Source of the DNA: Candidatus Saccharimonadales bacterium
GTDB lineage: Bacteria; Patescibacteriota; Microgenomatia; Woykebacterales; RBG-16-39-9b
Assembly: GCA_035480955.1 (NCBI GenBank)
Contig: DATIHF010000006.1
Span: forward strand, 11,110 to 75,109
DNA: 64,000 nt
Direction of reading: 5' to 3'
A program made the translations under genes and the position numbers. Positions 36,119 through 60,572 of this stretch are shown here, one piece after another. Below the pieces are notes generated by a model that did no database searches, was not told where the DNA came from, and saw nothing but the letters and a program-made list of their open reading frames with translations. Every line of letters begins with the position of its first letter. Positions within the stretch are counted from its first letter, which is position 1.

Positions 36119-37462
36119 ATGGGGATGAAACTGACCAGCAAAGCTCGCGCAAAAAAACTCTTTACTCCACTGACTGCCAATGGTCAAAAACCATTAGCTG
36201 AAAGAATCCGTCCAACTAACCTTGAGGGCTTTGTCGGTCAAGAGCATTTGGTCGGGCAGGGGAAACTGATCTCCACTTTACTCCGACAAGACAAAATCCC
36301 TTCTCTAATTTTCTGGGGGCCACCAGGCTCGGGTAAAACAACTCTCGCGAAAATCATCGCCCACGAAACCAAATCTTTTTTTGAATTCCACTCTGCAGTC
36401 GAGGTCGGCGTCAACGACATCAAAATAGTTATTAACGAATCTAAGGAGAGGCTTGAACTTACTCAGCAAAGGACGATTCTTTGCATTGACGAGATCCATC
36501 GCTGGAACAAATCCCAACAAGCGATCCTGCTGCCTTTTGTCGAAGACGGAACAATCATTCTTATCGGCGCAACCACCGAAAATCCTTCTTTTGAAGTCAT
36601 CGGCCCACTGCTTTCTCGCAGCAAAGTTGTCATTCTCGAAAGATTGGAAGAAGCAGACATCAAGAAACTAGTTCAACACGCCCTGCGCGATAAAACTCAT
36701 GGGTTGGGCAATTCAAAAGCAAAACTGGAACCAGAGGCCATGCAACTTTTGTTGGACGCCTCGAACGGGGATGCGAGGACGACCCTCAACGCTCTGGAAA
36801 TTGCTGTTAATCTCACTTCGCAACGAAACGGCGAGAGGAAAGTTACGGTTGAGAAAATCGAGCAAGCTTTGGGCAGTAAAAAACTGCTTTACGATAAAAC
36901 TGGAGAAGAACACTACAATGTCATCTCGGCTTTCATCAAAAGTTTGCGCGGCTCTGACCCTGACGCGGCGGTCTATTATCTGGCGAGAATGCTGGAGGCA
37001 GGAGAAGATCCAGAATTTATCGCGCGAAGAATGATAATTTTAGCCAGCGAAGACGTCGGCAACGCTGACCCCAAAGCTCTGCAGGTTGCGGTTGCGACCG
37101 CCCAAGCCCTACAATTTGTCGGTTTACCAGAAGCGGCCATTAATCTCGCTCAAGCGGCAACTTATCTAGCCACCACACCGAAAAGCAACGCTAGCTACAT
37201 GTCACTGCGCTTTGCACAATCAGACGTCAGAGCCACTCTCAACGAACCAGTGCCGCTGCATCTACGCAACGCAGTCACTGATCTGATGAAAGATGTGGGC
37301 TACGGAAAAGGTTATAAATATGCTCATGATTATGAAGGTGGGGTAGTGGAGCAGCAATTTCTTCCCGACAGCCTCAAAAATAAAAAGTACTACCATCCCA
37401 AAAAAATTGGGTATGAGAAATATATCAAAGAACATCTCGAAAAAATCAATTCCAATAATTAG
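36119..37462 (+). CDS. rarA: replication-associated recombination protein A (RarA/MgsA AAA+ ATPase)
   Basis: [29 protein letters not shown] and C-terminal MgsA helical domain. Confidence 0.9.
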
Positions 37463-42738: not shown

Positions 42739-43143
42739 TTATCTATCTTTCAGTCTAAAAACAAATTTAAGAGCTGACCAGTCCTCATCAATGGCAGCAA
42801 CTTTCACATCAACTAATGAATTTTCCAAACCGATAGTCCGAACAATATTCTCGTTCAAATCTTTAGGGATTTTTGAAGAACCTTTTGGCCAGCCGACCCA
42901 TAAGTTTCCGTTTTTAGCCAAATGGGATTTTAATTTTGGAAAAGTCTCGTGCAGCTCAGCTTTTTCTGTAACAAAAGAAATAATAAAATCTAAATTCGAT
43001 TCAGGCTTTTCAAAAATTTTAAAAGTGATAGGAGAGTCTGCAATTTCTTTTTCAAAAGAAAGAGGGGAATTGTCAAAATAGACTCTGCTGCCCTCTTTCA
43101 AACCCAACTTTTCAACTAAAGACTTACCAGAATAGCCTGCCAT
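42739..43143 (-). CDS. DUF3052 family protein
   Basis: N-terminal MAGYSGKSLVEKLGLKEGSRVY is characteristic of DUF3052. Confidence 0.65.
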   Translation of the reverse strand: MAGYSGKSLVEKLGLKEGSRVYFDNSPLSFEKEIADSPITFKIFEKPESNLDFIISFVTEKAELHETFPKLKSHLAKNGNLWVGWPKGSSKIPKDLNENIVRTIGLENSLVDVKVAAIDEDWSALKFVFRLKDR

Positions 43144-43934
43144 AGCCGTATTATCACACTATAATCTTTATTTTTCAAGGCTAAAAGCGCGTCTTTTGCT
43201 TGATAGATCAGTCTAATTTATCAATTATAGGGTAAAAATGGACCCCTCAGGGGGAGGAGGCGAAAGGGGTAAAACCCTTGAATGTACTGATACAGCAGCC
43301 AATATGAGCAATTTGAGTGCGATAAATAAATTTAAGAATTTAGGACAGAGAAAAAACAGGGAATTTTGAATACGATTTTGAAAGCTAAAAAGTTTTCAGT
43401 TAGCGCAGTAGGAAAGTGAGAGGAAAATTTCAAAACAGCTCTCGGTGGGGAGCTTAACTCCACGTCGCATAAGATACATTGTGCGACGTAATAGCAAATA
43501 GCCTTTAGGAGCTCTTTCTAATGAAGAGAAGGGGCGCACAGATATCACAGATTAATTGGAAATTAATTTGTTTTTTATTTTCACTTCATCCTCTGTGCAC
43601 TTCCTACATTACTTAAGATCTAAAAACGCCTCCTAGGCCCTTTTAAGGGCTTGCTACTATTAGCCTTGGAAATACCTTTAGTCGGACTCTTGGGTAGACA
43701 CTCATCGGAGAGAGTCAAATTTGCTTGTTATTTAGGTTTAAATTGATAGTTTTCTAGCTATAAATTATGACATCTCAGGCATGCAATTAGCACTCGTTTT
43801 ATAGCTCTGCAAAGTTATCCACAAAAGATACCTCAGTCTAATGTAAGAAGGGCGCATTAAAAAACTAAAGGAGGGTCGCACTACACTAGAGAAGAGTGGG
43901 GCGAAAGTTTTGTTTGGCTCCAGCTCGTCCAAAG

Positions 43935-43957
43935 CCGAAAGGTCTTTCGGGTTTTTT
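43935..43957 (+). terminator. intrinsic terminator inside the ORF-free region
   Basis: CCGAAA-GGUC-UUUCGG followed by GUUUUUUG. Confidence 0.5.
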
Positions 43958-44229
43958 GCGATCGGACTTCTTCATCTAGACCCTATAGTATTACTTTCCA
44001 CACGTGGAAACAACTATATCATACTATATCATCATGTCTTATAGTATTGTTGTACCTTTTCTCCTTTTTACCCCCACTACTCCTCCACTCTGACAGAGCG
44101 TCGCAAAAATTTTTTCCTCTTCTTTCAAATAAAAATTAATTGTCAGTAAATAGATCCGCTGATCAAGCTTTCAAGTACTGCAATTAAAAAAAGCTAGTCT
44201 CTTAAAACCCTCACCCCCTCCCTGTTATC

Positions 44230-44268
44230 AAAAAAAATGGGCCCCGGGAAAACAAGTTTCTCGGGGCC
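44230..44268 (-). terminator. intrinsic terminator for the minus-strand transcript
   Basis: GGCCCCG...CGGGGCC hairpin with an A8 run on the plus strand, giving a U-tract on the minus strand. Confidence 0.6.
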
Positions 44269-44296
44269 GACAGGCTATTCAATTGTAAGACTCTGG

Positions 44297-44658
44297 TCTA
44301 AAACCCCGCTAGCGAAGCTTAGGTTTTAGAGTCCAGGGCCTGAAGTTCACTGTCGAGACCGCGGCATTCTTCGGCCAGATGTCGCTGCTCTTCTGGATTC
44401 TGAGCAGACTGGCCGAGTACATTACCGCTCAACGATACAGCGATTCCTCGTCTACCAACAGAGGGTTCGTCATCCCTCCATGGTGTTTTTGGCGGAGGCG
44501 GGGGTGGCTCCCCGGGTCCACGCGTCTGCCAATAACGAGGTCTATAATCCATCGTCCATATCCTCACGGGGAACTCGCCCAAACCCAGGGGCGGATCTAT
44601 CGGTTCCTTCCTCTGTAAATCCCTCAATTGGGTTCTTTCCCCCTCCCTTCTAAAACCC
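44297..44658. repeat. 10-nt direct repeats TCTAAAACCC (44297-44306 and 44649-44658) bracketing a GC-rich 350-bp segment, plus the complementary GGTTTTAGA at 44322-44330
   Basis: Exact 10-mer duplication. The central element can pair with either copy. Confidence 0.5.
44319..44627 (-). CDS. GC-rich Pro-rich hypothetical ORF (doubtful)
   Basis: TTG start. GPGEPPPPPPKTPW low complexity. Overlapping ORF on the opposite strand. Composition atypical for this genome. Confidence 0.25.
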   Translation of the reverse strand: MRDLQRKEPIDPPLGLGEFPVRIWTMDYRPRYWQTRGPGEPPPPPPKTPWRDDEPSVGRRGIAVSLSGNVLGQSAQNPEEQRHLAEECRGLDSELQALDSKT

Positions 44659-44699: not shown

Positions 44700-45473
44700 T
44701 CAAATGCCCCAGGTTGTGGTGACAATAAGAAGAAGAAATACACTAAACGCAACAAAAACATACTCAAAGGTCGCTCGGCGGGTCAGATCCTTATCAAGCA
44801 TATGATGCATGATGCCCAGCACAACATAAACCATCGCGGTCATTGCCAGCCCAATCTTTGGTGGGTCAAGTGGCCAAAAAGACAAGGCCGCGGACAGCTG
44901 AGCAACAATCAACCCGGCGACTAAACTGTAGAGTATTAATTCTCGACTCAAAGTTTCTTCAAGCTCGACTTGCCACAATGCTTGAGCAAAAAGCAAAGAA
45001 CCGAACCCAAAACTTATCAAAGTTAGCGCCCACCACGGCAGTCCTAATCCATAAATCAAAGAAAAGAAAGCAAAGGAAACAAATAAAGTCACGAGATAGC
45101 CCACTGTCCGAGCTGCTCGCAAAAGTGGGATGTTTCGCTCCGCGGAGACATTAAAAATATTTTCTGCCAGCAAATTGGTATAAAGAACAACTCCGTAAAC
45201 CACACAGAGAAGAAGTCTGATCTCAGTCGAAGGGTTGAATTGATTGATAAAAAGGGCAAAACTCAGTGTTAGAAAAGTGGGCAAAACAAATAAAGTGATG
45301 AATTCAAAACCTTTCAGGTCTTTGAAAATCGACCAGACCGAAAGCAGATAGCTGGCCACGACTAACCCAGCAAGTAAATAGAGTTTGATATTAGCCTCAG
45401 CGAGTGGAAAAAAGAAAAGTCCTCCGGAGAGAACGATCGTTACGATTGTGATCTTTACGCGCTTGGTCAGCAT
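44700..45473 (-). CDS. polytopic membrane protein, unknown function
   Basis: About 8 predicted TM helices, downstream of ruvC. Confidence 0.55.
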   Translation of the reverse strand: MLTKRVKITIVTIVLSGGLFFFPLAEANIKLYLLAGLVVASYLLSVWSIFKDLKGFEFITLFVLPTFLTLSFALFINQFNPSTEIRLLLCVVYGVVLYTNLLAENIFNVSAERNIPLLRAARTVGYLVTLFVSFAFFSLIYGLGLPWWALTLISFGFGSLLFAQALWQVELEETLSRELILYSLVAGLIVAQLSAALSFWPLDPPKIGLAMTAMVYVVLGIMHHMLDKDLTRRATFEYVFVAFSVFLLLIVTTTWGI

Positions 45474-45482
45474 AGTTGGCGG

Positions 45483-46034
45483 CTAGATTTTAGCATTTCC
45501 TTTTGCCGCTGTCACTTGCTGCTCTTTGAGAACATGGCAAATCGCCAAGGCCAGCGCGTCATAGGCATCGTCACGAAAGCGGTAAACGTCTTTGCCAGCT
45601 TGGTTTTTGGCAGTGTGTAGCTCCTTCATACCCAGATGTTTCAAAACGGCATCCTGCACCTGTTGTTTGTCGCTTCTACCGTGACCTGCGACCATTAATT
45701 TCATTGTCAGACCAGTATATTCATGGATTGGTAAGTGTTTCTCCGCAGCTGCCAGAGAAATCGCCCCAATCGCTTGTCCGACATTGATCGCGGTGGTGAC
45801 ATTGGCTCCAAAGAAAATCTTTTCCATCGACATCAAATCTGGTTTGTACTCAGCAATCAATTTGCTAATTCCCTCCTTCAAGGTCAGCAAACGATACGGC
45901 ATTTCCCGATTTTTGTCAGTCAGGATACACCCGTAATTGCGGGCGATAAATTTCGTTTTGCTGTCACTACCCTCAACTTTGAGAACTCCCCAACCAGTGG
46001 TGGCAGTTCCCGGATCAATTCCGAGAATTAACAT
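45483..46034 (-). CDS. ruvC: crossover junction endodeoxyribonuclease RuvC
   Basis: MLILGIDPGTATTGWGVL N-terminus. RNase H-like fold with catalytic Asp/Glu. Confidence 0.9.
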   Translation of the reverse strand: MLILGIDPGTATTGWGVLKVEGSDSKTKFIARNYGCILTDKNREMPYRLLTLKEGISKLIAEYKPDLMSMEKIFFGANVTTAINVGQAIGAISLAAAEKHLPIHEYTGLTMKLMVAGHGRSDKQQVQDAVLKHLGMKELHTAKNQAGKDVYRFRDDAYDALALAICHVLKEQQVTAAKGNAKI

Positions 46035-46291: not shown

Positions 46292-46549
46292 CTAGTTTTT
46301 TCTCAAAAAGCTGTAAACTAGCTGGGACAGGACCGGGATTGCGATTACCCAAATTACCACAAACATCACCCAATTGAGATTACTCGTGTTAAAACAGTCC
46401 CAACCGCGACAACCACCTATTCGATAATAATAGTAATAAATCACGCTCGACCAAGCAAAAACAATAACCAAACTAATTAAAACTGAATAGATTACCTGCT
46501 GATTTAGCAAAGGGGGTTTTTGTTCAATACTTGCTGAGTTGTCCGCCAT
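46292..46549 (-). CDS. small membrane protein
   Basis: 2-TM, 85 aa, abuts yebC. Confidence 0.4.
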   Translation of the reverse strand: MADNSASIEQKPPLLNQQVIYSVLISLVIVFAWSSVIYYYYYRIGGCRGWDCFNTSNLNWVMFVVIWVIAIPVLSQLVYSFLRKN

Positions 46550-47307
46550 TAAGAAACCTCCATATTTTCTTCTAGCATTTCCTCTGAAATGTCAAAATTG
46601 GCGTAAACTTTCTGGACATCATCAAGCTCTTCAAGCTTTTCCACTAAAGAAAGGACGCTTTTGGCTTGAGAGTCTTGAGTGATTTTTACTGTTGTAGTTG
46701 GCTCTTTGACTACTTCAGAACTAACTACCAGGTAACCTTCTTTCTCAACTGCTTCTTTAACCTTCAGCAACTGCTCAGGAGAAGAAAAAATAGTTGCCTC
46801 TTCTCCATGAGTGTCGATATCCTCTGCCCCACTATCAGCGGCCAGCAAAAAAAGTTCATCCGGGTCTTTTTCACTCAGATTTACCACCAGCTCGCCTTTT
46901 GGTTTGAAAAGATAGGCAACACTACCTGGACCAGCGAGATTGCCATTGTTGCGATCGAGAGTCGAGCGTACGTCAGAAGCGGAGCGCATTTTATTGTCAG
47001 TAACAACTTCGATGATCAACGCAACTCCAGCGGGACCAAAACCTTCGTAAGTTACCTCTTCCAAGGCTTTCTCACTTCCCTCTCCGGTTGCGCGAGAGAC
47101 GGCTCGATCAATGTTGTCTTTGGGCATATTGATCGCCCGAGCGGCTTCAATTGCCAATCTCAGTTTGAAATTGGCATCTGGATTGCCACCGCCTTCTTTA
47201 GCGGCAATGGTGATTGCCCGACCAGCTTTGGTAAAAGCTTGGCCACGCTTAGCATCATTAGCCCCTTTTTGTCGTTTAATAGTCGACCATTTACTGTGAC
47301 CTGACAT
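46549..47307 (-). CDS. yebC: YebC/PmpR-family transcriptional regulator
   Basis: MSGHSKWSTIKRQKGANDAKRGQAFTKAGRAITIAAKEGGGNPDANFKLR is the canonical YebC N-terminus. Classic yebC-ruvC arrangement. Confidence 0.9.
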   Translation of the reverse strand: MSGHSKWSTIKRQKGANDAKRGQAFTKAGRAITIAAKEGGGNPDANFKLRLAIEAARAINMPKDNIDRAVSRATGEGSEKALEEVTYEGFGPAGVALIIEVVTDNKMRSASDVRSTLDRNNGNLAGPGSVAYLFKPKGELVVNLSEKDPDELFLLAADSGAEDIDTHGEEATIFSSPEQLLKVKEAVEKEGYLVVSSEVVKEPTTTVKITQDSQAKSVLSLVEKLEELDDVQKVYANFDISEEMLEENMEVS

Positions 47308-49306: not shown

Positions 49307-52300
49307 TTATTGTTTTAATTGGGTCGGTGGAAAGCGGAAAATTTCCACTTCCCCACTTTTTCCTGCTATTGCAGGCTCTTTTTTCTCTTCATTCTGCCCA
49401 CCAACTAACCCAGTCGGCAGGTTTTGATTAAGATTTTCCGGAGTAATTTTTGCTTGTTCTTGCTCTTGCCTAGAGATTGCCCCAGGGTCTGGGTAAGATT
49501 CTGTTCCTTCCAGATTTTGATTGAGCTCTTCAAAACTTTCTACCACGGGAATATTTTTATTAAGATCAACATTGTCTTTCGGCGGCAGAAAAGCGGTGTC
49601 AACACTGTTCAAACTAATTGCAGATGGTTGCGGTGGTGCTTGAGGTGTTTGTATTTGTGGTTGGGTGGTTTCTGGAGCAGGAATTGGCGCCGCAACCGGA
49701 GTTTGTGGTGCAGGAGTGCTTTGTGGTTGTTGAAGAGCCTCTGGTACGAATGTCGGTGGGGTTGGTGCACTAACAGGAGCTTTCAAACTTTCCTCGACCA
49801 GTAAATCTGCCAAGGGAGATCCACCTGAAGTGGCTGGTTGTCCAAAAGCGGGTGTTGTTCTAGCTGGAGCAGGAGTGGCGGCCGCAGCGGCAGCGGCACG
49901 AGCTTCTTCGACGGCCCAGGCGGGCGGCTGAGGTGGCTGGCCGGGAATGAATTTCGTCTCCGTCCATTTTTTGATTAATTTCTCTACCTTTTCGACTTCC
50001 TTACCAAACTTGATGCGGGAGAGCTGAATTGCTTTAGTTGTCATTGCCGTAGCATCAGTTGGAGGTGCGAGAGAGACGGCCGAGAATGGTTTTGATCCCT
50101 GATCGTCAATTTGCAGTTTAATATACATTTCGAATCGACCGAGGTTGATAAAATCATTTTCCAAAAAGACCGGTGAGAATTCTCTTTCCAAAAAGTGCGC
50201 GTCCTGATTCCCAACTCCAAAGACAATCGTGGTACCAACGTTTCCAAAAATAGCATCCCGGACAGTTTCCGGCATTTGCTCGATATACTGATGCGTAATA
50301 ACCAAATCCAATCGGTATTTTCTCGCTTCAGAGAGTATCACTGCAAACGAATCTGTCGCAAAGTTTTGGAACTCGTCAGCGTAAAGGAAGAAATCTTGGC
50401 GACTCTCTTCTGGAATATCGACTCGGCGCATGGCGGCAAACTCCAACTGGGAAACAATCATCGCTCCGAGCAGTGAAGTGTTGTTCGCACCGATACGACC
50501 TGAAGCCAAATTGACGAAGAAAAGTTTTTTGTTATTGATAATATCGTCAACTTTGATCGTGGATTTTGGCTGCCCAACAATATTTCTGATCAGCTCACTG
50601 TTTAAGAACTGTCCAACTTTGTTTTGAATTGGTGCGATCGCTTCGGTGATGAGTCGGTCGTTTTGCTCCAATTTGGCAAACTCGGTTAGCCAGAAGTCTT
50701 TCATTTGCGGATCTTTGATGAGCCCCACGATATATCTGCGGTAGCCTTTATCAACCAAAAGTCGAGTGATCGACAACAGTGAGGTGTTTGGCACCTCGAG
50801 AAGTGTCAAAATACAATTTTTCAAAATGTACTCAAGTCGAGGTCCCCAGCTGTTGGCAAAGTATTTTTTGAAAACGTCAACCAGGGTGTCGGCCATCAGC
50901 GTCCTCTGTCTTGGGTCGACCATCTCCAACATGTTCAATGAGACCGGGTGATCCGCATCAGCTGGATTGAAAATGACTACATCTTCAGCTCGGTTTTCCG
51001 GAACAAATTCAAGCAGCTCGTCAATTAATTGTCCATGGGGATCCAAAACCGCCACTCCCTCACCGTTGCGCATATCTTGAATAATCATGTTTTTGATCAA
51101 AGTAGACTTACCCGTACCAGTTTTTCCAATAATATACATGTGTTTTCGTCTGTCGGGCTTTTTAATTCCGAACGTTTGTTCGTGATCGCGGAAATAAGTT
51201 TTACCCAAATAAGTCACCGCTGAAGTCGGGATATTGAGCGGTGGTTCGCCTTTTTTAGAATGAGTCCAGGCAATCGTAGGTGTCTCAACTGAAAGATTTG
51301 GCAAGTGGAATATCGAGGCCAGCTCTTCGATCGTTAAGACATAGTCGCCACTAGCTCCTTCGGGAAAACTCCTATCACGGTAGCTTTTTACCATAGAAGC
51401 GGTGGTCGGACTGTCCGGATCAGGTTCAAAAGCATTTAAGGAGGCGGTGGAAAATTGTTTGAAAGAAGCAATTGCTGAGGAGAGTTTAGCCTGAGCTTCC
51501 TCTTTGGTGTCAGCAACGGCAACAACACGTATTTTTGTTTCAAAACCGATCTTGGAAAGTTTATTCTCAATCATTTTCAGATCAAGTTCTTGTCCAGCCG
51601 AAAGTCTAGGCGCGAGCTCCGCCCGAGCCGGAAGCGGCGGCTCTTTGGGACCGGACATCATGTAAGGAAGGATATTTGTTCCGACTGAGAGAATATGCTT
51701 ACCGACATCAATTGCGATATCTCCAGGAGCCAGAGAAACGGGATGTTTACCCTCTCTAACCATTTTCACGTAGTCATGGCCGCGATCTTGCCAAAAGTCA
51801 TCGATTGGCCGCACCATAATTTGCACCCAAATTTGTTCAGTTTTTCGCACGCTACCTAGTGCACTGGTAATTGCCGCTAGCGGATCCACCTCAAAGTCAC
51901 GGAAAGTTTTGATTGGAAAAATAAAATCTTTGGCGAGAGCCAGCTCTGTTCCGATGACCACAGCATTGTCACTAACGCTTTTAGAATAATCAACTGCTTC
52001 TCGGATCTCAGCATCAGGATATTGTGCGTAGATTTGGCTTTCAACGAAACTTTTGAAACCTCTTGGGGTAAAACAGTAAAAATTGATTCCAGAGGAAGAG
52101 CTGGCCATCTCTAGTGAGATGTGTTCTTGCAAGTCTGGAGTAAAACGCAGTAAACCGTGGAGCGACGCGAACATCTGCTCAGCCGCTATTGGCAGTTTTT
52201 CATTTTCTTTGGGAAGTCGAATAGAAAGGAGTACTCCCTCCCCAATTGCTTCTTTCTTACTATCCCCTTTTTCCTGCGATAAGGCAGAACGGTAAGCCCA

Positions 52301-52348
52301 GAAAAAAGCGATTATTACGATAACTAAAATGCCGCCTATTACTAGCAT
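49307..52348 (-). CDS. membrane-anchored TraD/TrwB/VirD4-like (FtsK-HerA superfamily) P-loop ATPase with long P/Q/A-rich C-terminal tail
   Basis: N-terminal TM. Walker A IIGKTGTGKSTL, VLDPHGQLIDEL and Walker B FFLYADEFQNF. Roughly 250-aa low-complexity C-terminus. Confidence 0.65.
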   Translation of the reverse strand: MLVIGGILVIVIIAFFWAYRSALSQEKGDSKKEAIGEGVLLSIRLPKENEKLPIAAEQMFASLHGLLRFTPDLQEHISLEMASSSSGINFYCFTPRGFKSFVESQIYAQYPDAEIREAVDYSKSVSDNAVVIGTELALAKDFIFPIKTFRDFEVDPLAAITSALGSVRKTEQIWVQIMVRPIDDFWQDRGHDYVKMVREGKHPVSLAPGDIAIDVGKHILSVGTNILPYMMSGPKEPPLPARAELAPRLSAGQELDLKMIENKLSKIGFETKIRVVAVADTKEEAQAKLSSAIASFKQFSTASLNAFEPDPDSPTTASMVKSYRDRSFPEGASGDYVLTIEELASIFHLPNLSVETPTIAWTHSKKGEPPLNIPTSAVTYLGKTYFRDHEQTFGIKKPDRRKHMYIIGKTGTGKSTLIKNMIIQDMRNGEGVAVLDPHGQLIDELLEFVPENRAEDVVIFNPADADHPVSLNMLEMVDPRQRTLMADTLVDVFKKYFANSWGPRLEYILKNCILTLLEVPNTSLLSITRLLVDKGYRRYIVGLIKDPQMKDFWLTEFAKLEQNDRLITEAIAPIQNKVGQFLNSELIRNIVGQPKSTIKVDDIINNKKLFFVNLASGRIGANNTSLLGAMIVSQLEFAAMRRVDIPEESRQDFFLYADEFQNFATDSFAVILSEARKYRLDLVITHQYIEQMPETVRDAIFGNVGTTIVFGVGNQDAHFLEREFSPVFLENDFINLGRFEMYIKLQIDDQGSKPFSAVSLAPPTDATAMTTKAIQLSRIKFGKEVEKVEKLIKKWTETKFIPGQPPQPPAWAVEEARAAAAAAATPAPARTTPAFGQPATSGGSPLADLLVEESLKAPVSAPTPPTFVPEALQQPQSTPAPQTPVAAPIPAPETTQPQIQTPQAPPQPSAISLNSVDTAFLPPKDNVDLNKNIPVVESFEELNQNLEGTESYPDPGAISRQEQEQAKITPENLNQNLPTGLVGGQNEEKKEPAIAGKSGEVEIFRFPPTQLKQ

Positions 52349-59147: not shown

Positions 59148-60572
59148 CTAAAGTTGGTCAATTAATTTTAGTAGAGTTTGGACCCCAACACCAGTAGGTC
59201 CTTTGGCGAGATAGGGTTTCTCACCTTCATTCCAGGCAGTGCCGGCAATATCAAGATGAGCCCAGGCGACTTTGTTATCGATAAATTCTTGCAAGAACAC
59301 TGCCCCCGCGATCACTCCTGCTCCTCTGCTGGGAGGAACATTGGCCAAATCGGCAACCTCGCTGCGTAAAAATTCTTTGTGTTCCGGGTAAAGGGGCAAT
59401 TGCCACATCCTTTCCCCCACTTCTTTACCGCTTTGGATCACTTGATCAATAAACTCTTGATTGTTTCCCAAAATTGCTGTGGCCTCATAACCAAGTGCAA
59501 CAATCGCCGCCCCAGTGAGAGTTGCCAGGTCAACGATCTTTTGCGCACCTTGTTTTTGGGCAAGCAGTAGCCCATCAGAGAGTACAACTCTGCCCTCAGC
59601 ATCGGTATTGATTACTTCAATGCTCTTACCGTTGCTTGCTTTGACAACATCACCAGGTTTGAGGGCGCCCCCGCCAGGAAGGTTTTCTGTAAGGGGGGTA
59701 ACTCCAACAACATTAATTTTGGGTTTTAAGATCCCAACAAGTTTCATGAAGCCAATTGTCGCGGCTGCACCGGCCATATCCATTTTCATATCGTGCATTT
59801 TTTCTGAAGGTTTTATTGAAATTCCCCCTGAATCAAAGGTGATTCCTTTACCCACTACTCCAAGAGTTGGAGCATCTTTGCCGTAAAGATACTTCAGGGA
59901 GACCATGTAGGAAGGTTCGTGACTTCCTTTGGCAATACCCAGAAAAGCCCCCATTCCCTCTCGAGCCGCCTGTTTTTCATCATAAACTTCGATTTTTAGT
60001 TTTTGTTCACGGGCGATCTTTTTCGCTTCCTCAACCAAATGAGATGGAGTCAAAAGATTGGCAGGTTGAGCAACTAAGGCTCTGACCCAGTTGGTTGTTT
60101 CTGCGGCACTCTGAGCTTTTTTAATTTCAGATGAGGAGAATTTCCCAATTATCATTAACTCTTCGAACTTTCCTGGCTTTTCTTTCCCGGTTTTGGCAAC
60201 TCCTGGATCAAATTCTCCCAAGACTACCCCTTCGATGATCAGACTTGGTTGAGAATAAATTTTTGCGTCAAATGCAATTTTTTTAACTTTATTTTTGAGT
60301 AAACGTCGCGCAGCGGCTCCGGCAACATTGCGCCCGATTCGCGCATCGAATTCACCTTTTTTACCAGCACCAACTAACAATATTTTCGGGGTTGAGGACC
60401 CAGCGGGAATGAGAAAAGTTTCGTAAAGTTTTCCACTAAAGTCGTTCTCTGTCAGATTTGCGGTAGTTTTGACGACATTTTGTAGAAAATTTTTATCTCC
60501 TTCAAAAATAGGGAAAACAAGGGCTTCGGTTTGAATTTCTTCAATTGGAGACTCTGTAGAGATAATCTTCAT
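59148..60572 (-). CDS. pepA: leucyl aminopeptidase (M17)
   Basis: NTDAEGRVVLSDGL signature and metal ligands. Confidence 0.9.
   Translation of the reverse strand: MKIISTESPIEEIQTEALVFPIFEGDKNFLQNVVKTTANLTENDFSGKLYETFLIPAGSSTPKILLVGAGKKGEFDARIGRNVAGAAARRLLKNKVKKIAFDAKIYSQPSLIIEGVVLGEFDPGVAKTGKEKPGKFEELMIIGKFSSSEIKKAQSAAETTNWVRALVAQPANLLTPSHLVEEAKKIAREQKLKIEVYDEKQAAREGMGAFLGIAKGSHEPSYMVSLKYLYGKDAPTLGVVGKGITFDSGGISIKPSEKMHDMKMDMAGAAATIGFMKLVGILKPKINVVGVTPLTENLPGGGALKPGDVVKASNGKSIEVINTDAEGRVVLSDGLLLAQKQGAQKIVDLATLTGAAIVALGYEATAILGNNQEFIDQVIQSGKEVGERMWQLPLYPEHKEFLRSEVADLANVPPSRGAGVIAGAVFLQEFIDNKVAWAHLDIAGTAWNEGEKPYLAKGPTGVGVQTLLKLIDQL

Follow-up and report, generated by a model that had tools for sequence, protein, structure and literature searches.

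A probable dif-type Xer recombination site and a conserved repeat module in a 1.2-kb intergenic gap at a patescibacterial replication terminus

Why does a genome that is otherwise densely packed with genes keep 1.2 kb free of them? This question is raised by a 64-kb window of a Saccharimonadales bacterium, a member of the Patescibacteria (by window we mean the whole stretch of DNA that was analysed), in which positions 43144-44318 (1175 nt) are the sole long stretch without an open reading frame (ORF) of at least 60 aa in any frame, while the second-longest ORF-free stretch measures 264 nt. A preliminary description had rightly singled out this gap in its gene-dense surroundings and had proposed that it encodes non-coding RNAs (ncRNAs), a large structured RNA or small peptides; the features it had listed are all present, with small corrections of coordinates. 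The gap is unusual solely in comparison with its neighbourhood, since shuffled sequence commonly yields ORF-free stretches of 1.7-3.9 kb. Its GC content is 0.34-0.41 compared with approximately 0.43 around it, and the genes flanking it are without exception on the minus strand. Our analysis makes it highly probable that the gap is an intergenic region at the replication terminus, and that it holds a dif-type Xer recombination site.

The proposed site is a palindrome-like sequence of 28 bp at 43462-43489. The preliminary description had placed this palindrome, ACGTCGCA...TGCGACGT, at 43461-43490 and had considered it a stem-loop; the palindrome itself was confirmed, while its reading as an RNA structure gave way to that of a dif site. 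Its minus-strand sequence consists of the arms ACGTCGCACAA and TTATGCGACGT, which are 11-bp inverted copies with one differing position, and of the 6-bp centre TGTATC between them. This 11-6-11 layout is the architecture given for dif sites (PMC5357621). When compared to the reference dif sequences taken from PMC3025954, the 28-mer shares 18 of its 28 positions with E. coli dif (GGTGCGCATAATGTATATTATGTTAAAT) and likewise 18 with B. subtilis dif, and in the core (positions 5-22 of the 28-mer) 16 of 18 positions are shared with E. coli dif in an alignment judged by eye. The 28-mer is present only once in the window, even if up to three mismatches are allowed.

Two sets of related loci were available for comparison. 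Relatives of the first set were located via the DUF5656 protein encoded beside the gap, to which their homologues are 42-73% identical. All these protein-derived relatives have an ORF-poor stretch downstream of DUF5656, and blocks of the gap align to them (nhmmer, blastn) with a conservation higher than that of the neighbouring protein. Eight of them (L007, L008, L010/L146, L011, L012, L139, L141 and L144) carry the site, 0.5-0.8 kb downstream of DUF5656. In the records of L139 and L141 it lies at approximately 398 kb of 938 kb and 699 kb of 915 kb, respectively, positions to which no meaning was attached. The second set was obtained by scanning metagenome contigs with a core pattern, which revealed at least 120 loci with one site each, nearly always intergenic. 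The pattern fixes positions 4-25, and thus their invariance across these loci is given by construction; the positions that carry information are 7, 22 and the outer ones.

The outer arm positions co-vary across the pattern-derived loci in a way that preserves the inverted-copy arms. Among the arm mismatches, G:T and A:C are equally frequent (8 versus 8 and 9 versus 9), which is the behaviour of a double-stranded DNA palindrome and would not be seen in an RNA hairpin. An extended helix around the site scored 5.08 compared with 4.64 in the control, a difference that is not meaningful. A structured RNA corresponding to the stem-loop at 43462-43489 was excluded on the basis of the symmetric arm mismatches and the missing flank helix.

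Beyond the site, a conserved flank is found on the minus strand at 43437-43454, which comprises GCTCCCCA and a small hairpin and is followed by a short T run (43431-43436). A ..GCTCCCC.. block 3' of the site is kept in relatives, including those with an alternative site (see below). In some loci pseudo-sites consisting of the left arm only (GTCGCACAAT...) were observed to the right of dif, namely in L041 (at +461 from dif), L010 and L011. These may be scars of earlier Xer-mediated insertions.

If the 28-mer is a dif site, it should be located where the two replichores meet. Indeed, three kinds of evidence place it at the replication terminus. First, when 113 unique loci were oriented by the site, genes pointing toward it outnumbered those pointing away by 308 to 65 on one side and by 262 to 88 on the other. 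Second, the GC skew at third codon positions (GC3 skew) in these loci was +0.044 for the converging and -0.061 for the diverging genes (Mann-Whitney p = 8e-8), its sign indicating that the converging genes are on the G-rich leading strand. Third, we ranked all 7-mers in the flanks by strand polarity in an unbiased manner, with the intergenic core excluded, and the top-ranked one was AGGGGAG, with 188 occurrences directed toward the site and 5 directed away from it. For comparison, the FtsK-orienting polar sequence (KOPS) of E. coli, GGGNAGGG, pointed toward the site 90 times and away from it 10 times across the loci. The polarity of AGGGGAG was kept within lagging-strand genes pointing away from the site (62 versus 10), which means that the motif is tied to the replichore, whichever strand the gene is on.

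The window itself behaves in the same way. To the left of the site AGGGGA was found 15 times on the plus and once on the minus strand, and to the right once on the plus and 10 times on the minus strand (25 of 27 concordant; p = 1.4e-5). The corresponding numbers for GGGGAG are 19 and 3 on the left and 0 and 16 on the right (35 of 38 concordant; p = 9e-8). Within the window the two polarities are best separated by a split at 43.5-44.5 kb, for which 60 of 65 motifs are concordant. The minus-strand GCTCCCCA of the conserved flank corresponds to a plus-strand GGGGAG at 43447-43452, which is directed at dif and is the final plus-strand GGGGAG before the polarity switches. Published criteria for KOPS ask for a skew of 90% or more and, in the vicinity of dif, for no fewer than one motif per 40 kb (PMC3384302), and the values of the AGGGGAG-type motif agree with this, the density of AGGGGA in the window being approximately 1 per 2.4 kb.

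The convergence of genes, GC3 skew and motifs marks a terminus, since an origin would show the reverse polarity in all three. This bears directly on the possibility that the gap contains the chromosomal replication origin oriC, which the preliminary description had already argued against. It is true that the region harbours a perfect DnaA box (43815-43823, the sole perfect one in the 64 kb, as had been noticed), that this nonamer is present as TGTGGATAA in approximately 19 of 80 relatives and that AT-rich repeats are located nearby. However, boxes with at most one mismatch occur at chance level (10 versus 12.3 expected) and do not form a cluster, and protein-domain searches found neither dnaA nor dnaN in the window. 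Furthermore, other relatives have TGTATACAA or TGTATATAA in place of this nonamer and L141 lacks it, so that its identity as a DnaA box is doubtful. Together with a polarity opposite to that of an origin, this leaves oriC hardly conceivable.

The 28-mer lies at the terminus of replication, and a plausible mechanism can be outlined. Xer-family tyrosine recombinases would bind both 11-bp arms, and strand exchange across the centre TGTATC would resolve a dimeric chromosome into two monomers ahead of cell division. The polarity data suggest that an FtsK-type translocase may be steered to dif by the AGGGGAG-type motif, as KOPS do in E. coli. The near-identity of the inverted arms fits a single recombinase or two very similar ones.

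No recombinase gene adjoins the 28-bp site among the nearest neighbours in 75 loci. At the same syntenic position in three relatives (L009, L143 and L145), the 28-mer is exchanged for another site of 30 bp, GAYYGAGTATAA, TCAYCN, TTACACTCRRTC, the arms of which are also inverted copies and show compensatory changes at the outer positions between the three loci. Directly after this site a gene for a protein of 313-319 aa with Phage_int_SAM_1 and Phage_integrase domains is present (site and gene together at L143:7480-8498, L145:7440-8461 and L009:7360-8392). When compared to solved structures, this Xer-family protein matched XerD (1e-22), XerA (1.5e-22) and XerH (4e-11). The top match in the PDB, 9i5v_14 (E = 5.8e-24), belongs to a ribosome entry and is labelled RaiA; it was set aside as being probably the chain of a tyrosine recombinase that was mislabelled or had co-purified. 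The recombinases of L009 and L143 are 80% identical. All three loci retain DUF5656, the repeat module described below and the post-site flank ..AAGCTCCCC... As judged from sequence and synteny, they represent an exchange in place of one putative dimer-resolution system by another. A comparable organization, with the site directly upstream of the recombinase gene, is described for xerS/difSL and xerH/difH (PMC5357621).

The second observation on the use of the site by Xer enzymes comes from the locus L094, where an element of 4.3 kb (L094:1315-5645) is bounded by a full dif and a hybrid site, GGCGTTCCTAA, TGTATC, TTATGCGACAT, which has the centre and one arm in common with the full site. The genes of this element are all on one strand and encode, among others, a Zot-like protein and a Rep protein of the G2P rolling-circle type, while an integrase is missing. 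This configuration resembles that of integrative mobile elements exploiting Xer (IMEX) such as CTXphi and VGJphi (PMC5357621), and the element looks like an IMEX of the inovirus type that would use the Xer site. We count it as a fourth line of evidence, independent of gene orientation, GC3 skew and the polar motif, for the placement of the site at the terminus. Six matches to the centre and the right arm with divergent left arms were found in viral contigs, among them a tailed-phage fragment (L133); they may be due to chance and were not used.

Adjacent to dif we found a second conserved element, a repeat module, which always lies on the DUF5656 side of the site, at a distance of 0.17-0.55 kb and on a constant arm side. 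It is composed of phased TGATATAG repeats, the palindrome TTTCCACGTGTGGAAA, ACTATAGGGT, ACCCGAA, the DnaA-box-like nonamer and GTGCTAAT, and it was detected in 12 of 12 protein-derived DUF5656 loci. Its dense part spans approximately 0.1 kb (43975-44091), with further blocks down to 43620, and none of its motifs is general across the window. All elements of the module are given below in the order in which they are encountered on the minus strand, starting at the outer edge, which is formed by the purine-rich tract GAGTGGAGGAGTAGTGGGGGTAAAAAGGAG (44056-44091; GTGGGGAAGAGGAG or GGAGTAGAGGAG tracts in relatives).

Next come two direct TGATATAG repeats at 44014-44031, which we call B boxes, 10 nt apart from start to start and each resembling an extended -10 element (TGnTATAGT); a promoter scan returned AAGACA-16-TATAGT with TG at this place. 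In relatives 27 of 33 B-box pairs are spaced by exactly 10 nt. The pair was found in 26 of 92 loci, in 26 of 26 cases with DUF5656 upstream, and nowhere else in 1.53 Mb strand-bases. The near-perfect palindrome TTTCCACACGTGGAAA follows at 43995-44010, where it had been reported previously together with the two copies of ACTATATCAT nearby (44013-44032); relatives have TTTCCACGCGTGGAAA or direct CGTGAAAA repeats instead. The ACTATAGGGT element at 43980-43989 is conserved in relatives, many of which have a -35-like TTGNNN 17-18 nt upstream of it, as judged by eye. It overlaps one of just two copies of TATAGGGT in the 64 kb, at 43226-43233 on the plus and at 43980-43987 on the minus strand, both aimed at dif and both preceded by TGATA-type repeats. 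The facing copies could be convergent promoters or paired binding sites.

Closer to dif, a terminator-like hairpin with a T run is located at 43935-43957 on the plus strand, as had been described; its minus-strand motif is AAAAAACCCGAAAG, the ACCCGAA core of which is conserved and retained even in relatives lacking the T run. The segment 43786-43823 contains TGTGGATAAC, which gives the DnaA-box consensus on the plus strand, and 20 nt later GAGTGCTAAT (43795-43786), with GTGCTAA being widely conserved among relatives. The last block, GCAAGCCCTTAAAAGGGCCTAGGAGGCGTTTTTAG, is a conserved small hairpin followed by a T run on the minus strand (43620-43660; AAGGCGCTGnAAGGCCCTAG...GTTTTT in relatives), in which the GCCC...GGGC hairpin noted earlier was recovered at approximately 43637-43651. 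ACCCGAA (P), TGTGGATAA (T) and GTGCTAA (G) do not keep a constant order: the window has P-T-G, whereas L139 has P-G-T, L038 has T-P-G and group 1 has T-G-P.

To judge from this arrangement, the module is most likely read by proteins as double-stranded DNA, since it has direct repeats phased by 10 bp, palindromes and a permuted motif order. It is not found at 57 of 92 loci carrying the same 28-bp site and is thus dispensable for the existence of the site, while it is retained where the site type is exchanged. On its role we can only speculate. Tentatively, and with more doubt than conviction, it may be considered a hitherto undescribed element organizing the terminus of Patescibacteria, with the possible role of a protein-bound array for positioning or licensing the locus of dimer resolution, of a fork barrier acting from one side, or of a regulated promoter for transcription across dif; indeed, the module could contain a promoter directed at dif. 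The regulatory hub mentioned in the preliminary description is also a possible reading of the module.

A related explanation is that the module is accessory or architectural DNA acting on dif, either similar to the accessory sequences of cer/psi, or as an anchor of the MatP/matS type, or as a fork barrier effective from one side. In line with this are the constant arm side and the short distance to the site, the phased direct repeats and palindromes, the survival of the module when the site type is swapped and the resemblance of the palindrome and of the CGTGAAAA box to parS half sites. A PepA-like M17 peptidase is encoded in the window, a weak argument because such peptidases are common. However, at the 57 loci mentioned above the site works without the module in other lineages, the KOPS-like polarity points to control by FtsK and not by accessory proteins, and a candidate binding protein is lacking. 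We therefore regard this explanation as a possibility that is worth keeping in mind, though a doubtful one.

Alternatively, the module could be the promoter of a functional ncRNA on the minus strand, a proposal that is compatible with a real dif. Such an RNA would start at approximately 43978 and end either at the T run near 43620 (approximately 350 nt) or, after passing through dif, at the hairpin and T run near 43431 (approximately 550 nt). The extended -10-like TGATATAGT repeats, the arrangement TTGNNN-17/18-TATAGG and the minus-strand T runs after small hairpins at conserved places are in agreement with this, as are the many relatives without an obvious terminator between DUF5656 and the module and some changes of the G:U type in a possible TAGCA...TGCTA hairpin. 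Against it stands the search for RNA structure. Neither the window nor any of 16 related loci gave an Rfam match at the gathering score, the best sub-threshold hit having E = 0.18. RNAalifold, applied to 14 diverged loci and to 11 loci of the window type, returned nothing beyond the DNA palindromes of dif and TTTCCACGTGTGGAAA and pairings of invariant repeats. Over the segment from -330 to +110, the folding z-scores of 16 loci fell for the most part in the range of -3 to +1 on either strand, and a hairpin anchored at GTGCTAA was no better than its shuffled counterpart (4.00 versus 3.84). Furthermore, the motif order is permuted among relatives, and direct repeats phased by 10 bp are characteristic of sites in double-stranded DNA. 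Thus, the structured RNA of the preliminary description found no support, and a functional ncRNA from the module appears rather unlikely.

The other proposal made for the gap was that it encodes small peptides, such as the precursor of a ribosomally synthesized and post-translationally modified peptide (RiPP) or a leaderless product of 43 aa; a decayed gene would be a further variant. The ORFs in question exist: one of 43 aa at 43238-43369, which is called by gene finders, and one of 31 aa at 43521-43616, which is preceded by AGGAG. However, the ORFs of 43, 31, 55 and 102 aa had no tblastn match in approximately 130 related loci, and the conservation following the palindrome is independent of the frame, with translated matches in all three, which indicates that it operates at the level of DNA. 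In addition, modification enzymes do not adjoin the gap, the neighbours being DUF3052, DUF5656, RuvC and YebC, and relatives have no gene at this position. With small ORFs unmatched and matches in all three frames, the gap is neither a pseudogene nor a peptide locus, and such a coding origin must be seen as very improbable. The absence of an ordinary gene in relatives agrees with the earlier view that the stretch is non-coding and not a pseudogenised remnant.

Several observations weigh against the assignment of the gap to a dif site at the terminus. Protein-domain searches revealed no xer or ftsK gene in the 64-kb window, and we therefore assume that the recombinase is encoded elsewhere. Independent support for the invariance of the site comes from the eight protein-derived relatives only, its single-copy status applies to the 64-kb window and to the individual loci, and the evidence for an IMEX is limited to one locus. 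Taken by itself, the raw GC skew is noisy in the window and lacks a clean switch, which is the reason why the cumulative skew was replaced by the GC3 skew corrected for gene strand and by the analysis of polar motifs. At the level of RNA, the segment 43420-44065, taken on the plus strand, has a better folding than shuffled sequences (z = -4.1), and promoter- and terminator-like signals are present on both strands of the gap. Because of this folding and of the promoter-like signals, a weakly structured or unstructured transcript across dif may exist.

The dif site and the module are embedded in a simple gene context. Upstream of the gap the minus strand carries yebC (46549-47307), ruvC (45483-46034) and the DUF5656 gene (44700-45473), and the DUF3052 gene (42739-43143, minus) is located on the far side. 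The operon of yebC, ruvC, DUF5656 and an ORF of 77 aa ends at an intrinsic terminator on the minus strand (44230-44268, with arms at 44240-44251 and 44257-44268, then T8); the minus-strand terminator reported before thus corresponds to 44240-44268 plus a T run. On the other side, the promoter scan suggested a likely DUF3052 promoter on the minus strand, TTGAAA-17-GATAAT with TG (43150-43178), and the TATAAT is located at 43160-43165. A promoter-like plus-strand segment at 43200-43233, TTGATA-17-AATTAT, overlaps TATAGGGT, contains in addition the palindrome TGATAGATCA and is aimed at dif from its far side; it is partially conserved in L007 and more weakly in L008. A scan for tRNAs and tmRNA found none.

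Some further observations were made in this neighbourhood. The ORF of 77/102 aa between DUF5656 and the gap (44319-44627, minus) has a GC content of approximately 0.57 compared with 0.43 around it and no match in any relative, and in relatives the module directly follows DUF5656 without this ORF in between; it has the appearance of an insertion specific to this lineage, or of a spurious ORF. A second assembly of the same genome (L001) differs from the window by two single nucleotide polymorphisms over 2 kb, both immediately upstream of the B boxes (window 44030-44045). A protein of 1012 aa encoded on the minus strand (49307-52345) has a type IV coupling-protein domain (TrwB/VirD4) and a HerA-like domain, and its gene keeps synteny with the dif locus in the relatives L139, L141 and L143-L146, there together with DUF8128. 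Finally, RarA/MgsA (36119-37459), RuvC (45483-46034) and the PepA-like M17 aminopeptidase (59148-60569) are encoded within approximately 16 kb of dif. PepA is an accessory factor of Xer recombination at E. coli plasmid sites. The proximity of the three genes to dif may be a coincidence.

The identification of this locus is important for several reasons. The Patescibacteria, also known as Candidate Phyla Radiation (CPR), account for a large part of the diversity of bacteria, and their chromosome biology is almost wholly inferred. Although dif sites are elements of a familiar kind, no description of dif in this phylum was found in the literature searched. The module beside the site is a real and conserved element. 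With the locus, the Patescibacteria gain a concrete dif sequence and, with AGGGGAG, a candidate motif for the orientation of FtsK. The locus also provides a terminus marker that works on fragmentary contigs of metagenome-assembled genomes (MAGs), where the GC skew is too noisy. Further, the dimer-resolution locus yebC-ruvC-DUF5656-dif is syntenic across classes, and in some lineages the site is exchanged in place for a module of site plus recombinase. Last, at least one filamentous-phage-like element without an integrase appears to exploit the locus.

How does the locus compare with known systems? Like the accessory DNA of cer/psi, the matS sites bound by MatP and the parS sites, the module is conserved DNA of a protein-binding type located beside an Xer site or in the terminus, a likeness that is a resemblance only. 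The accessory region of cer/psi covers approximately 180 bp next to the XerC arm, to which PepA binds together with ArgR or ArcA. No ARG or ArcA box was recognised in the module, though no dedicated search for them was made. parS sites are usually located near the origin, and the module has a single palindrome and not a set of them. One half of the TTTCCACACGTGGAAA palindrome looks like a half site of parS (TGTTNCACGTGAAACA; PMC7022226), again as a resemblance only. Possible likenesses to E. coli Ter, B. subtilis Ter and NBS belong to the readings that were set aside.

The element in L094 shares with the IMEX CTXphi, VGJphi, TLCphi and the gonococcal genetic island (GGI) the inovirus hallmark genes, the missing integrase and the combination of a dif with a hybrid dif. 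Unlike these established elements, it is a putative IMEX, represented by one metagenomic contig of another lineage of Patescibacteria. The loci L009, L143 and L145 have in common with XerS/difSL, XerH/difH and archaeal XerA/dif an inverted-arm site next to an Xer-family gene, but their recombinase is nearer to XerD and XerA than to XerH, and their site has no sequence relationship with difSL or difH. The site in the window, with its near-palindromic arms, also resembles single-recombinase sites of the XerS, XerH and XerA types; in contrast to those modules, the site is of the 28-bp type and has no adjacent recombinase.

The polar motif is similar to the KOPS read by FtsK and to the SpoIIIE recognition sequences (SRS) in that it is short and G-rich, lies on the leading strand in more than 90% of the cases, flips at dif and does not depend on the gene strand. 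It differs from them in its sequence, which is AGGGGAG-like and not GGGNAGGG, GAGAAGGG or GAAGAAG. The closest parallels to the site itself are dif of E. coli, which is used by XerCD, and dif of B. subtilis, which is used by CodV-RipX. Both likewise have 28 bp with 11-bp arms and a 6-bp centre, they share the inner arm bases CAYAA...TTATG, and both are located at the replichore junction, on which G-rich polar motifs converge, with the recombinase gene not adjacent. The centre is TGTATC here and TGTATA in E. coli, and the XerC and XerD arms of E. coli dif are clearly unlike each other, whereas the arms in the window are near-perfect inverted copies. Finally, the site in the window differs from both its E. 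coli and B. subtilis counterparts in being adjoined by a conserved repeat module.

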